NCBI GenBank assembly: GCA_001929475.1
Contig: LXFE01000126.1
Span: 62,001 to 126,000, forward strand
Origin: Neolecta irregularis DAH-3
Lineage: Eukaryota
DNA: 64,000 nt
Direction of reading: 5' to 3'
Position 1 is the first letter of the stretch; every line of letters begins with the position of its first letter. The translations under genes were made by a program, and so were the position numbers. The notes beneath the pieces were generated by a model. That model did not search any database, was not told the origin of the DNA, and worked only from the letters and a program-made list of their open reading frames with translations. This document shows positions 1 through 64,000 of this stretch, piece after piece.

Positions 1-2428
1 CGTCCCCGTTTTCTCCAGGTGCAATGATTGCAACGAAGCTTCTCTTTGCGCTGAAAACGTTGATGCCTTCCTTTACGCATTTATTGAAGAATTCCGAAAT
101 GCTATTTGAAGTAGCAGACTTGAGAAGAGGAAATAGAAGTTCCGTTTTCAAAGCGGCGTCCACGGTGTTAATTTGATTTGTTAGGCCAACTTGAACACAG
201 AGGATCGGTGTAACGATTGCAGTTGAAGCCAGAAACGATAAAATTTCAGTCTTCGTCTTTCCCGCTCCTTTTCTTCCGATACCTGATAGCAGATGTCCGA
301 TAATCTTCATGATCTTTTCCTCGTCTAAGAGATATTCTTCAAGATGCGGAGCAATGACTTCATTTGCAAAGTATTTAGCAACTGACCATGGGAGCCATTT
401 GATATTTTTCGAATTATCTCCATAACCCACGATATGTCCAATCGGAGATGTTTGCACCTTGTCATACATTTTAATTACCTCTTGGAACGCTGAAACTGCA
501 GCAGTTCGAATCTTAAGTGAACGATCACCCAGCACAATTAGAAGATACGGTATTAGAATCTGGAAATCTGTGTACTCACTGGAAGATACCACATCTTCCA
601 CAAGGTTGAGAGCCATAACTCGACTTCGATTGACGTGCGTAGTTATGGACCAAACATATCCAAAGAAAGTAATCAATGAAAGTTCATCCTTCGGGAAAAA
701 AGAAGACTTCATCAAGGTTTCAATATCGTCTCGAGAAGTGGAAGCTCGATCAAAGATTGCCGTTAAATTCTCGAGATCTGAAGAAAGAATATTTCCGAAG
801 AAGGATTCTGGAATAACTTCCAGCTGCTGGAAATTCTGCAGCATTTTTTCAAACGTTTCGGGGTCATTCGTGTGCGAGTTACTTTCCATGCTTATTTCAC
901 TTTGTATTTCGTTCGTCTAGTAAAGTGAGACTAACCGTGTAAAGATGATACCTGTAACGTGATTTGCAGTGTCATTTCAAGCTTCTCTGTGCGTTCAATG
1001 TCCTCGGCAAGAACGATATTCAAAATTCGAGAAAGTACTTTATCATTTTTTAAACTATTCAACATTTCTGAAATCTGAACTCGAGTTCCTGGAGTGTTCT
1101 TTTTAAGAGTGGATTCTATTAGTTCGCGAAAAATGACCTTGGTTTGTGTTTCACTTATTCTACCGGACCTGACGTATCCTTCAATTCGTTTGATTGAATC
1201 TGAAGTCAAGACAGAGCTTTTGATTAAACGGATCAGGAATCCTGTGACCAGTTTATCTGCTCTGAATTTCGAGACAATTTCCTGGAGAAGGATTTCTGTT
1301 TCTCTATTCATTGAGAACTTCTATTTATCAAAGGTCAACTTACTTGGCATCGTTCATAGCTTTATAAACTCCATCAGGAAGAGGAGGGTTTCCTTCACGA
1401 ACCTGCATCAATTGTGCGATACACAGCAAGGCGGATTTGAAAGTCCGTTTAGACCATGTAGTAGATATCCCGTTCATGATGGTCACCAAAATCTGATCAG
1501 TGATAGTACCGCTCGAAGCCAAGACAGTCAAGACCATGTAATTCGAGATCTACTGGGTGAAATGTGTATATAGAAGCATACAATACCTGGTGTTCAGGCG
1601 CAGCATGAAACTGTGTGCCTTCAGCAGCGAATGGCAGAGTTCTTTGCATGATCAGATCTTCGTCGACTTTGGCCTGTCTCATTCTCAGAATCGCTTCAAC
1701 AGCAACCGAGGCCCAGAATGCAGATAACGCATGGTAACCCTTTTGTTCACTGGCCATATCTTCGACAAACTGTGCCACAATATTGTAGAATGTGGGGTCC
1801 TGAGCCAACGACATGACAATCTCGTGTCGAGATGGAGCACTGCGATCTTTCTTCCGTGCCTCTAGAAAGCTCCAGATTGGCTGAGGGAGGGTGACAATCA
1901 CAAGAAGCCGGGCAAAGGTTGGGTGAGAGTAATAGGGTAGAAAGGTTAGTAATAAAGTTTCGGCGTTATAATTGTGAATTCTTTTACTTTAGATTTTTTT
2001 CAGAAATACAAGGTATACCGAAACCGTCGAACAAGCCATTCGAGAGCTCGGGTAGTAGCCCCGAGAAGAAAATGAGGGCTCAGGATGTGTATAAACGTAG
2101 AAAGCACTCCGTTCAAAGCATCATTATCGGCCTTTGTCTACGCCGTTTATTTTCTCGGATACAGAAGAAGACCCACCTGCAGGAACCGGTCCACATTCTT
2201 GGAACCCTCAGAGAATAATATCGTCTCGAATTGTCTCAACCTCGGATCTATTTCACACAGTTCGTCAAAAGCTTCACGACCAATCTCGTAAATGGTATCG
2301 ATGTTCTTTTCAGCGGCCTCTGAGATATCATACAGCAGAGAGGCAACTTTCTTAAACTGGTTTTGGTACGGCGCATTTACTGCTGAGGCTCTCAGCTCCT
2401 GGAGCTGTGTAGCCAAAGCAGTAGTCAT
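1..2428 (-). CDS. UTP10: U3 snoRNA-associated HEAT-repeat protein Utp10/HEATR1 (5' part; continues beyond the window start; spliced)
   Basis: Spliced N-terminus MTTALATQLQEL...SLLYD...EAFDELCEIDPRLRQFETILFS...[35 protein letters not shown] matches the Utp10 N-terminal motifs; about 5 introns of 35-40 nt. Confidence 0.9.
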
Positions 2429-2635
2429 ATTGAAAACTGGTGGTTTCAGTTGGAGTTTGCGAACTTTTTTTCCATAATCGAACCCGCGAATTGATTGGCG
2501 GTTTTCGCACACCTTGGATAGTGAGTCGTATTAAACTAACCACCAAAGATCAGATATCACCAAGAAACTGCAGTATACCACAATATTGCATTCTCAGCCA
2601 TTGCCGATACTGGGTAGATTCCCCTAATTATTCCT

Positions 2636-61567: not shown

Positions 61568-61638
61568 ATCATCACGTGTTAATATCGCGTCACACCTATT
61601 TTAGAAAAAAATCCGCATCAGCGTTCCATCAACGAATT

Positions 61639-64000
61639 ATGGGAAAATCTCAAAGGAAGACCGGAAAAGGTCGGTTGGATAAATACTATAAGCTTGCAAA
61701 AGGTGGACAATACGAATTTACTGGCTGGCTGATTTTATAGAGCAGGGATATCGTGCTCGTTCGGCGTTCAAACTTATTCAACTAAACAAGAAATACAACT
61801 TTTTAGAAAAATCCAAAGTGCTTATTGATCTTTGTGCGGCTCCTGGAGGATGGTGTGTTTTTTAAATATTCAAAGCTGAAATGCTCTAGGCTTCAAGTCG
61901 CATCGAAATACATGCCCGTGGAAAGTCTTATCGTGGGTAAGCTGACTATTATTCAAAGCAGAATTTGATTCTCGAGGCGTGGATTTGGTTCCAATTCGGC
62001 CGATTCCAAGATGTACGTCGTTTGTCGAGGATATTACTACGGATAAATGTCGAGCTGCCCTTCGAGGACATTTGAAAACATGGAAAGCAGATGTGTATGA
62101 TCCAGATTGCTCCACAGATTGAATTTGAATTTCCAGGGTTCTTCACGATGGTGCTCCTAATGTCGGTACTGCCTGGTTGCAAGACGCCTATTCGCAGGCG
62201 GAATTAGTACTCTCGTCATTGAAACTGGCTTGTGAATTTCTGGTGAAAGGAGGTGTGAATTCTTTCTCATACGATATCTTACCTTTAGGGCTCTTTATTA
62301 CCAAAGTCTTCCGATCAAAAGATTACAATAATTTATTATGGGTGTTCAGCCAGCTCTTTGACAAAGTAGAAGCTACAAAACCCCCCTCTTCTCGGTATTG
62401 TTCGGCACAAACTGTGCCCTAATATATTAGTAACGTCTCTGCCGAAATATTCGTCGTTTGCAGAGGATTTAAAGCCCCCTTGAAAATTGATCCCAAGTTT
62501 CTCAGTGCCAAATCTGTCTTTGAGGAATTACCGGACCCCGAGGTGAACCAAGAGGCCAGTGTATTTCACCCGGAAAAGAAGAAACGACATAGAGATGGAT
62601 ACGATGAAGGGGATTATACACTTTTTAAAGAGTTTCCGGTCTCTGAATTTGTTCGATCAGCGGAACCAATTCAAATACTCGGGAGAACAAATAAAATCGG
62701 GTTTCCGGTCAAGGATGAAGAAGCACAACGAATTAAAAAGTCAGATCACACGACTGAGGAGATTCTGGCTTGTTGTACAGACTTGAAAGTTTTGGGCAAG
62801 AAAGATTTCAGGAATTTGCTGAGATGGAGAGCAAGTCTTCGTGATGAAGTGTCGATATCCCTGCATCCGTATACTAATCACTCAAGCTCTGTTTGAATGC
62901 CAAGAAAGCAGAAACAACAGCAGAAGAAACCGTTGAAATCGAGCCGGTGAGTGAGGAGCAGCAGATGGAGGATGAGGTTTGTGTAGCAACCAAAACCGTT
63001 CTCACGATATAGATCAAGCAGTTGTCAGAAGAACAGAACACGCTTAGGAAACGCTCAAGAAGACGGCTAAACGAAAGAAAGCAAAAGAACGTTGTACGAA
63101 TGCAACTCGGGATGCTTACGCCCAAAGACATCGGGATCGAGCAGACCGAAATGCAAGGCAAAGATTCTGTATTTTCATTAAAGCAGATTGAAAAGCAAGG
63201 TGTATTTTCTCAAGTTGCAGATGGAGAAATGGCTGTCGATGTTGAATCGTCAGACGATGATCTTGCCGAGAGCGACGGTGGGAATAGCGAGGATGAAGAT
63301 GATTTAGATGGTCAATTAGATGTGATGTATGAGACTTACCAGGAGCGTAAAGCGGAAATGAATGCAAGGTATCGTGCTCAGAAATCGCGAGAGGAAGTGG
63401 ATGACACAGAGTTTCGAGGATTTTCAGATCGACATGATTCGGGTGATGATTCAGTAGATGAAGACATGCCGTCGAATACACTGATTACTTCATTGGAGAA
63501 AGAGGACAAGCCTAGTGTTGGCTTGACTAGAAAGGCGGCGTTATTTTTCAACCAAGATATCTTTCAAGAGCAGGAAGGAAGCGATTTAAATGCGACGGTA
63601 CCAAGAAAGAAAGAAAACAAGCAGGAACCAGTTAGAGATGAAGAGAACGATGTTGCTCGAGACGATGGTCTAGATTGGGACATGTCACAGGTAGAGACCG
63701 CGAAAGAACCGGGTAGGTCCATTGTTGAATTATTCTGACTGTAGCTGTTGATATTGTTACCGAAGAAGCAATGACACTAGCTCACAAGATTGCTCTTAAG
63801 CAAGTCAAAATCAAAGATCTGATCGACGAAGGGTTCAACAAGCACGCTTTCTACCACAAACAAGGTCTTCCAGACTGGTTTCTTGACGATGAAAAGCGAC
63901 ACACGAAACCCAATATACCAATCACTGCCGAGGCGGCAGCAGCTGTTCGCGAAAAGTTACGGGCACTCAACGCACGTCCAATTAAAAAAGTGATGGAAGC
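61639..64000 (+). CDS. SPB1: 27S pre-rRNA 2'-O-methyltransferase Spb1 (FtsJ/RrmJ family); runs off the window end; spliced
   Basis: [88 protein letters not shown]. Confidence 0.96.

Follow-up and report, generated by a model that had tools for sequence, protein, structure and literature searches.

Very short introns with weak splice signals are described from Paramecium tetraurelia, the nucleomorph of Bigelowiella natans, and dicyemids, where intron density is high, lengths of 19-25 nt occupy a narrow range near the lower limit, little more than GT(A) remains of the donor, and the branch consensus is weak (PMC2483917, Irimia and Roy 2008). Among the values of that study used here, donor information at positions +3 to +6 is at least 5 bits in intron-poor species and 1-4 bits in intron-rich ones, with individual values of 3.9 bits in Schizosaccharomyces pombe, 2.3 in Aspergillus fumigatus, 1.9 on chromosome 2 of Ostreococcus, 1.5 in Arabidopsis thaliana, and 0.5 in a dicyemid (PMC2483917). 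The share of the best branch hexamer with three degenerate sites is given there as 56% in S. pombe, 51% in Neurospora crassa, 43% in A. fumigatus, 40% in Cryptococcus neoformans, 20% in Rhizopus oryzae, and 3.6% in Paramecium. We analyzed the introns of a 64,000-nt stretch of the Neolecta irregularis DAH-3 genome (contig LXFE01000126.1, positions 62,001-126,000 of the forward strand; hereafter "the window," with all coordinates counted from its first nucleotide), and found them to be tiny as well, with splice signals that exist but are weak.

Neolecta is, to our knowledge, the sole lineage of early-diverging ascomycetes that grows as filaments and forms fruiting bodies. A high number of introns has already been published for it: in the figures cited here, 1211 orthologs hold 4202 introns in Neolecta versus 862 in S. 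pombe (PMC7940399). Counts for the related Taphrinomycotina genus Pneumocystis are similar (4842-5289 in shared orthologs), its compact genome carries ~5 introns per gene, and intron retention was detected for 42-49% of its introns (PMC4764891, PMC7940399). A full-text literature search returned no description of a ~38-nt intron length or of weak splice signals in Neolecta, although supplements of the genome paper may hold such numbers. The main text of that paper contains zero occurrences of "intron" or "splic" (its supplements may again differ), and it states that 99.4% of N. irregularis genes are supported by RNA sequencing (PMC5309816).

Intron set and splice signals in the window

All junctions discussed here come from this one 64-kb window (G+C 41-45%) and rest on reading frame, database models, and protein homology. 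Genes were modeled on both strands with our own gene finder, a generalised hidden Markov model with a three-periodic Markov coding model that considers GT-AG introns only, so that introns outside the database models are GT-AG by construction. Since coding bias is weak, a first gene finder with a strong intron penalty yielded only 15 introns, while unsupervised training led to the first model, which settled at 27 genes and 164 introns (median length 38 nt). We then aligned four database proteins to the DNA, permitting GT, GC, or AT starts and AG or AC ends. Three named N. irregularis DAH-3 entries (P0002, P0121, and P0241) are 100% identical to the exon translations, as is the unnamed P0242, and all 38 introns of the four proteins resolve as GT-AG, 32 of them being identical in the first model (7/8, 11/14, 10/11, and 4/5). 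A second model included a sharp length term, a term for the branch, and a lower limit on exon size, and 40 supported introns served as its seeds. It gave 148 introns and kept 39 of the 40 seeds after retraining on its own output, a figure that is not an independent test. Curation of these 148 took out one known false intron and three probable gene-fusion "introns" and moved one boundary to its database version, leaving 144 GT-AG introns. Outside support is available for 46 of them, 37 via database models and 9 via PDB or Pfam rulers, the latter counting the residues between Pfam-aligned exon ends against profile positions; removal of these 46 restores a frame colinear with homologues, and removal of the other 98 restores the frame in the model only. 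An earlier note on this DNA had counted about 150 introns in 29 genes, and both figures hold up well: introns number ~145 (164, 148, and 144 in the first, second, and curated sets), and our 27 gene models include two visible fusions, of NAD kinase with End3 and of Fis1 with a RING protein.

Intron lengths are tightly distributed, with a median of 38 nt, an interquartile range of 36-40 nt, and a 5th-95th percentile range of 34-45 nt (n = 144), and the 37 introns from database models alone likewise have a median of 38 nt. The distribution rises from a wall at ~33-34 nt to a mode of 36-38 nt and then thins into a right tail that reaches 94 nt. As the earlier note had it, most introns are 31-45 nt long (136/144), and seven span 53-94 nt (53, 59, 61, 66, 68, 83, and 94 nt). 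Density amounts to 2.84 introns per kb of coding sequence (144 introns). Lengths that divide by three occur in 45 of the 144 introns, nine of which would be stop-free if retained; surveillance-driven selection and a detection bias of the models could explain this pattern equally, introns of the latter type being the hardest to detect. Surveillance-driven selection on introns divisible by three has reportedly been found in ciliates.

Donor sites are weak but clearly non-random. Of the 144 curated donors, 83 carry G at -1 and 113 carry A at +3 (12 G, 12 T, 7 C); +4 is T in 78 and C in 34, +5 is G in 62, and +6 is T in 64; at +4, where T or C is preferred, A is rare (19/144). Compared to 2221 GT dinucleotides inside exons used as decoys, these preferences are two- to four-fold enriched: 113/144 versus 18% for A at +3, 58% versus 22% for G at -1, 54% versus 28% for T at +4, and 43% versus 17% for G at +5. 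The consensus is matched at ≥6 of 9 positions by 171 exonic GTs versus 88 of 158 real donors. Donor information at +3 to +6 is 1.52 bits (bootstrap confidence interval 1.29-1.89, n = 144), with 1.42 bits in 38 database or homology introns and 1.55 bits in an intermediate set of 142, and the share of A at +3 is steady at 77-79% across the first-model, database-only, and curated sets. No compensation between +3 and +5 was found among donors (odds ratio 0.93).

The earlier note was therefore right in substance and overstated in wording. Its statement that donors are almost free to vary behind GT and nearly lack a consensus reaches too far: the signal is weak, but A at +3 (113/144) and G at -1 (58%) amount to a consensus. 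Eight of the nine unusual hexamers it listed recur in the curated set (GTCCGC, GTCCGA, GTCGTC, GTTCTT, GTGGAC, GTCAAC, GTTTGC, and GTCTGT; GTTCAC does not). Four of these eight have been verified by homology, three of them directly (GTCCGA, GTCGTC, GTCTGT) and GTCAAC by way of a database model only. Such donors belong to a 22% tail without A at +3 (31/144) and are not the rule. That first reading reconstructed the genes well, several of its odd donors being homology-verified where our consensus-driven model failed. U12-type introns are characterized by an RTATCCTT donor and a TCCTTAAC branch close to the 3' end. Among the curated donors, with no scan dedicated to U12 introns, only one (24647-24682, -; model-only) begins with GTATCC, reminiscent of minor-spliceosome donors, but it continues with CCCC rather than TT, and the resemblance is probably due to chance.

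A branch signal is likewise present in degenerate form. A strict CTRAY can be read in 52 of the 144 curated introns and in 48 of the 164 introns of the first set, versus 21 ± 4 in shuffles of the latter. A de novo branch-like motif, (C/T)T(A/G/C)A(T/C/A), reached a log-likelihood of 68.7 versus 38.0 ± 3.3 in shuffled introns (10 shuffles) and an information content of 3.4 versus 1.9 bits. The A of this yTrAy motif lies at -8 to -11 in 95 of the 144 introns, at a median of 28 nt from the 5' end. Many introns do lack CTRAY, as had been noticed (92/144), but a degenerate motif with a preferred position is detectable. All four NAG acceptors are in use, again as proposed: TAG in 61 introns, CAG in 49, AAG in 26, and GAG in 8, i.e., 110/144 (76%) YAG and 24% non-YAG. 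A pyrimidine tract is lacking, with ≤0.09 bits of positional information upstream of -4, and the introns are only mildly T-rich (35% T).

Relative to published values, which stem from another paper's pipeline and background model and not from a matched reanalysis, the window is weaker than the listed ascomycetes. In donor strength it resembles Arabidopsis and in branch strength Rhizopus, and it clearly exceeds the ciliate extreme. The typical ascomycete splice code has a GTRNGT donor, a CTRAY branch, and a YAG acceptor, and the donor information of 1.52 bits found here falls below the 2.3-3.9 bits of the ascomycetes measured with that other pipeline. The branch metric of PMC2483917 gives 5.6, 9.2, 15.5, and 23.2% with zero to three degenerate sites, the last value (33/142, versus 9.6% in shuffled introns) being below the 43-56% reported for ascomycete WCTRAY/CTRAYN hexamers. 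Introns of S. pombe and A. fumigatus resemble those of Neolecta in being short, U2-type, and GT-AG, with a CTRAY-like branch and no strong pyrimidine tract, but have stronger donors (3.9 and 2.3 versus 1.5 bits) and branch motifs (56 and 43% versus 23%); the S. pombe median is 56 nt versus 38 nt, and Neolecta has 24% non-YAG acceptors. The branch A also sits closer to the 3' end, at 8-11 nt versus ~13-25 nt in most fungi as summarized in PMC2483917. The tiny-intron lineages share narrow lengths at the lower limit and high density with the window, but their introns are shorter still (19-25 nt versus a median of 38 nt). A branch signature, whose lack would mark the Paramecium type, is detectable in the window as a degenerate but positioned motif (WCTRAY in 23% versus 3.6% in Paramecium), and the dicyemid donor holds 0.5 versus 1.5 bits (PMC2483917). 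Neolecta, moreover, is an ascomycete fungus. Arabidopsis has the same donor information of 1.5 bits with a conventional spliceosome (PMC2483917), although plant introns are longer and rely on U-rich composition, whereas those of Neolecta are only mildly T-rich.

Intron geometry and competing explanations

We consider it likely that Neolecta, a member of the Taphrinomycotina rich in introns, carries ordinary U2-type GT-AG spliceosomal introns here that have shrunk to near the minimal workable length. The available signals are a weak donor, G/GTA(t/c)(g)(t), with the slash marking the exon end, a degenerate yTrAy branch, and an NAG acceptor, with no pyrimidine tract. Recognition may act on both ends jointly across the intron (intron definition), with several weak signals adding up within a geometry that is fixed and near-minimal; a better branch site could offset a weak donor, and leftover errors would presumably be removed by mRNA surveillance. 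S. pombe introns are presumably recognized by intron definition. Consistent with such an arrangement, donor and branch scores are anticorrelated in the full set (rho = -0.36, n = 144) and in the 46 supported introns scored with a model trained on other introns (rho = -0.43, p = 0.003), which fits joint recognition of both ends across a short intron. Weak signals would in any case be expected for intron-rich, short-intron lineages: they are predicted by the known inverse relation of intron number to signal strength together with the high intron number of Neolecta, and a changed spliceosome does not seem to be called for, since the published range for intron-rich species (1-4 bits; Arabidopsis 1.5) already contains the value of the window, toward its weak end.

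The contribution of each feature was evaluated by training donor, acceptor, branch, and length terms on other genes and applying them to the 14 held-out introns of the midasin gene. Mean scores were 1.73 bits for the donor, 0.56 for the acceptor, 1.89 for the branch, and 2.98 for length; in the 46 supported introns, with training on the rest, they were 1.81, 0.32, 1.54, and 3.12 bits, respectively. Among 5243 GT..AG decoy pairs in the midasin pre-mRNA, only 2 reached the median real score under the full model, and this number rose to 3, 15, 20, and 50 when the acceptor, donor, branch, or length term was left out, respectively. Length, or equally a fixed geometry of 5' end, branch, and 3' end, is thus the most informative single feature. 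This does not show that the spliceosome measures length, because longer introns exist and the lengths are cut off sharply on the lower side but tail off to the right.

Exons were also searched for pseudo-introns, with sense exons compared to synonymous-codon shuffles and only lengths not divisible by three considered, which the gene finder cannot excise. Pseudo-introns of 45-150 nt were depleted (63 versus 119.5 expected, ratio 0.53), as were those of 34-44 nt (10 versus 16.0, ratio 0.62), while the antisense strand was not (0.95 and 0.97) and no depletion was seen at 30-33 nt. The depletion at 45-150 nt was as strong as at 34-44 nt, i.e., we saw no length-specific avoidance of exonic pseudo-introns, and the effect is the product of site-level depletions rather than of pairing. 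In the 17.9 kb of database-model exons, depletion persisted on the sense strand for strong 3' signals only (0.82 and 0.68; of 100 synonymous-codon shuffles, 0 and 1 were as low), and their antisense showed none (0.99 and 0.92). Altogether, the evidence from exonic depletion is suggestive only.

Several observations weigh against explaining the window by ordinary, shrunken introns. The depletion of strong donors in all model exons (0.80-0.84) vanishes in database-model exons (0.93-0.97), and scrambled-matrix controls yield ratios that range widely (0.59-1.28). In the full set, the anticorrelation of donor and branch could partly reflect selection on total score. A donor information of 1.5 bits is well below that of the two published ascomycetes, so that the window is unusual within Ascomycota. 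As to the junctions, 98 of the 144 are model-only, the first model erred at 6 of the 38 database introns and introduced six false in-frame introns in midasin, and the recovery of 39 of 40 seeds by the second model carries no independent weight, since it was seeded with supported introns.

A more far-reaching possibility, which we regard as rather unlikely, is that splicing in Neolecta depends on geometry to a greater extent than on sequence. A complex formed across the intron would then span ~28 nt from donor to branch A and ~9 nt from branch A to AG, almost any GT, including GTC, would be accepted given a modest branch at the right distance, and donor and branch strength would trade off. Neolecta would in that case represent the fungal counterpart of ciliate tiny-intron splicing, possibly along with changes in U1, U6, or bridging factors.

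We find it unlikely that a length ruler and a modified spliceosome are at work, with a fixed spacing of ~35-38 nt, pairing of small nuclear RNAs to donor and branch largely dispensable, and either altered U1/U6/U2 contacts or relaxed proofreading. The earlier note had leaned this way in suggesting that introns are defined largely by a roughly 35-nt ruler, and part of its premise stands: signals are individually weak, length is the top single term on held-out introns (2.98 bits), and its removal raises the decoys from 2 to 50. In three places where homology decided, an intron of modal length won over the one with the better donor, namely in Ade1 (37 versus 31 nt), TRAPPC6 (GTCCGA, 36 nt), and glutaminyl-tRNA synthetase (GlnRS; GTCCAG, 35 nt). 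Donors with C at +3 are real (GTCCGA, GTCCAG, GTCGTC, GTCTGT), strong consensus-like donors are not depleted in database-model exons (0.93-0.97), and intron-like stretches with good donors remain unused in coding sequence. The ruler itself, however, is at odds with the curated introns of 53, 59, 61, 66, 68, 83, and 94 nt, and with a sharp lower wall and right tail such as shrinkage to a minimum, not a symmetric ruler, would be expected to leave. Pseudo-intron depletion, too, is not length-specific (0.53 at 45-150 nt, 0.62 at 34-44 nt, none at 30-33 nt), donors do favor A at +3 (78%), a branch motif exists at a preferred position, and the equally weak donor of Arabidopsis (1.5 bits) goes with a conventional spliceosome in the account of PMC2483917.

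Finally, it is highly improbable that the weakness is an artefact of boundary placement, with real donors more canonical and the odd hexamers the wrong GT or AG among frame-compatible choices: most introns do have several frame-compatible GT-AG alternatives (only 15/164 are unique), the first model did err at 6 of 38 database introns, and 98 of 144 junctions are supported by the model alone, but every error exposed by homology ran in the opposite direction, the true intron having a poorer donor or none better, six non-GTA donors are pinned by PDB or Pfam rulers and seven more lie in database models, 24416-24451 has no frame-compatible alternative and 3582-3617 only one, with the same donor, and expectation-maximisation yields no more than 1.5 bits even though it exaggerates a consensus instead of diluting it.

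Provided that the window is representative, Neolecta would bring the short-intron, weak-signal regime of ciliates and nucleomorphs into the fungi, and would do so within a clade of well-studied relatives such as S. pombe, which would make it useful for asking how little sequence information intron definition requires. Consensus-driven gene finders misplace boundaries here, and genome annotation should therefore weight length and homology.

Junctions fixed by homology and database proteins

Five genes carry introns that are pinned by PDB or Pfam matches. In the TRAPPC6/Trs33-like gene, intron 5090-5125 (+; 36 nt, donor GTCCGA, acceptor TAG) is in frame and stop-free, and a PDB search with the read-through translation aligned human TRAPPC6B with a gap of exactly 12 residues, whose edges are the GT..AG of this intron. 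The alternative chosen by the first model (5122-5154, GTAGGT) would remove conserved residues. In the GlnRS gene, intron 39566-39600 (-; 35 nt, donor GTCCAG, branch-like TTCTAAC, acceptor AAG) leaves exons that abut exactly, at 208/209 of PF00749 and at 461/462 and 480/481 of two solved GlnRS chains. The first model had instead placed a 73-nt intron with a GTATGA donor at 39595-39667, which deletes conserved coding sequence including a catalytic motif; in all, two GlnRS introns of that model were false. Around a further GlnRS intron, 40183-40218 (-; 36 nt, GTCGTC), the exons map to PF00749 positions 10-29 and 32-100 with exactly 2 residues between them, and a 33-nt alternative would leave one residue too many by the same ruler.

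Two adjoining NAD kinase introns, 53851-53885 (+; GTAAGT) and 53947-53983 (+; 37 nt, GTCTGT), were set by one Pfam ruler: the exons cover PF20143 positions 1-46, 47-66, and 68-106, with a split codon as 67 and none missing or extra. In the FtsJ domain of Spb1, the exons around 62253-62288 (+; 36 nt, GTGTGA) map to PF01728 positions 95-132 and 135-167 and leave exactly 2 residues for the gap; the ruler comes out 4 residues short across exons 1 to 4 of this gene. Malate dehydrogenase introns 6634-6675 (-; 42 nt, GTATGT) and 6579-6614 (-; 36 nt, GTTGTA) enclose a 19-nt exon and were tested jointly: the flanking exons cover PF00056 up to position 82 and again from position 90, the 7 residues in between coming from the mini-exon together with a split codon. 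A third intron of this gene, 6187-6224 (-; GTATTC), fits PF02866 (68, 2 residues, 71). The Pfam ruler had no usable hits for the N-terminal exons of the MutL homolog or for exon 4 of malate dehydrogenase.

The largest gene encodes midasin (8771-23961, -), to which P0121 (4877 aa, Midasin) maps back exactly with GT-AG introns only. Its 14 introns lie at 9215-9252, 15199-15236, 15388-15425, 15491-15528, 15606-15641, 15718-15754, 15878-15915 (GTCAAC), 16396-16430, 16761-16828 (68 nt), 20294-20334, 23001-23042 (GTTTGT), 23199-23231, 23357-23393, and 23672-23712. They are spread over 14.6 kb of coding sequence, in which the exons reach ~6 kb, 3.4 kb, and 2.7 kb, and cluster at the 5' end and within the 15.2-16.8 kb stretch; other genes have ~3.6 introns/kb. 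At three boundaries, the database and first models differ in unconserved sequence, where 0 homologs scored the local peptides.

Six further introns of the first model inside midasin exons proved to be coding. All run from GT to AG, are 30-45 nt long, divisible by three, and without a stop codon, and are kept as exon by the database model. On the minus strand, the peptide with the stretch scored better against homologs in 84/84 cases for 12678-12716, 82/82 for 19224-19253, 81/82 for 22248-22289, 83/84 for 22552-22590, 84/84 for 22591-22632, and 118/119 for 22905-22949. At these six stretches and at GlnRS 39595-39667, verified coding exons hold what look like good introns of 30-73 nt that have GTACGT, GTATGC, or GTATGA donors and end in AG.

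The purine enzyme GARS-AIRS (Ade1; 47447-50116, -) corresponds exactly to P0002 (789 aa) and has 8 introns, all with GTA donors: 48534-48569, 48751-48791, 48931-48970, 49123-49163, 49410-49446, 49619-49652, 49763-49799, and 49965-50001. For 49763-49799, the 37-nt database intron beat our own 31-nt alternative in 95/95 homologs. Acceptors in this gene comprise 5 AAG, 2 TAG, and 1 GAG, far above the window average of 18% for AAG.

P0241 (521 aa), named mitochondrial fission 1, maps back exactly onto 56081-58194 (-) and combines Fis1 TPR and RING-finger Pfam domains in one protein. Ten of its 11 introns are also in the first model, and ten were accepted: 56268-56302, 56430-56470, 56607-56659, 56772-56811, 56872-56909, 57263-57300, 57666-57708, 57889-57926, 58071-58106, and 58134-58172. 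The remaining 150-nt "intron" at 57444-57593 (-) was left out as a probable fusion of two genes; it is four times the normal length and looks like neighboring genes fused by annotation. Our own models fuse them too.

For Vps52, P0242 (418 aa) is the only database model found and is partial, beginning at a glutamine codon. It maps back exactly onto 35330-36781 (+) with introns 35375-35419, 35630-35671, 35909-35946, 36002-36037 (GTGGGG), and 36178-36214, and a 6-nt micro-exon of the first model is wrong against it. Our own models extend the gene on both sides with short introns but disagree with each other there; the second model adds the model-only introns 36374-36409, 36748-36784, and 36909-36946 (+).

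Model-only introns and the genes that carry them

The introns below are predictions of the second gene model. Pfam matches on single exons name most of the other genes in the window: a PIAS-type SUMO ligase (PINIT domain), TRAPPC6/Trs33 (TRAPP domain), malate dehydrogenase, an SLC35F transporter, a UBX protein, an SPRY protein, a PTR2 transporter, an adaptor mu-like subunit, a NIPA transporter, Vps52, GlnRS, an ankyrin protein, a MutL homolog, a GHMP kinase, NAD kinase, End3, Spc24, a fasciclin protein, and Spb1. No rRNA, tRNA, or other RNA genes were found within the window by Rfam at gathering thresholds or by ARAGORN.

At the left end (2-5545), a gene at 2-2428 (-) has introns 917-951, 1304-1343, 1550-1586, 1981-2018, and 2138-2176 (GTGGGT). 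The PIAS-type gene (2636-4636, +) has 2669-2751 (83 nt), 3104-3142, 3221-3258, 3582-3617 (GTCCGC, a donor shared by its sole frame-compatible alternative), 3724-3767, 3997-4030, and 4499-4542. Further introns were predicted in the TRAPPC6 gene (5244-5282 and 5376-5419, +) and, within 5690-8329, in malate dehydrogenase (5831-5866 and 6036-6101, the latter 66 nt, -) and the SLC35F-type transporter (7824-7860, -).

Beyond midasin, within 24320-34517, introns 24416-24451 (GTTTAC, without a frame-compatible alternative), 24647-24682, and 24800-24833 are followed by those of the UBX gene (25777-25802 and 25902-25942) and the SPRY gene (26984-27019). The PTR2 gene contains 28157-28250 (94 nt, GTGTTC), 28347-28381, 28861-28901, 29007-29041, and 29322-29358, and the adaptor mu-like gene 29861-29894, 30094-30128, 30241-30276, 30765-30801, 30996-31030, 31512-31545 (GTTCTT), and 31613-31673. 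In the NIPA gene, introns lie at 31923-31966, 32117-32154, 32246-32304, 32466-32505, and 32798-32835, and in a small gene at 33998-34035, 34111-34147, 34235-34276, and 34456-34495.

Downstream of Vps52, within 37172-47113, three introns were predicted at 37535-37574, 37912-37951, and 38109-38148, three in GlnRS (39334-39374, 39933-39973, and 40281-40319, -), two in the ankyrin gene (41590-41622 and 42918-42957), and three in another small gene (43550-43583, 43729-43767, and 43821-43858). The MutL-family gene has nine: 44377-44413, 44487-44522, 44610-44644 (GTGCCT), 44854-44894 (GTTTCT), 45065-45103, 45387-45422, 45508-45545, 45954-45992, and 46885-46923. Within 50298-55940, the GHMP kinase gene comes first with 51027-51062 and 51183-51216, and a small gene on the minus strand with 52278-52313, 52397-52433, and 52532-52565.

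Across NAD kinase and End3 (+), introns were placed at 53015-53054, 53197-53237, 53374-53407, 53506-53546, 54113-54152, 54293-54327 (GTTTAG), 54683-54721, 54803-54839, 54984-55027, 55122-55154 (GTGATT), 55219-55258, and 55537-55575 (GTTTGC); an 88-nt "intron" at 54372-54459 was dropped as a fusion of the two genes. Within 58277-63998, Spc24 has 58726-58760 and 58841-58879, and the fasciclin gene (-) has 59219-59260, 60238-60275, 60658-60696 (GTTTTG), and 61041-61074. The last gene of the window, Spb1 (+), adds 61703-61740 (GTGGAC), 61853-61889, 61937-61976, 62095-62136, 62395-62430, 62849-62886 (GTGTCG), 62977-63012, and 63713-63744.

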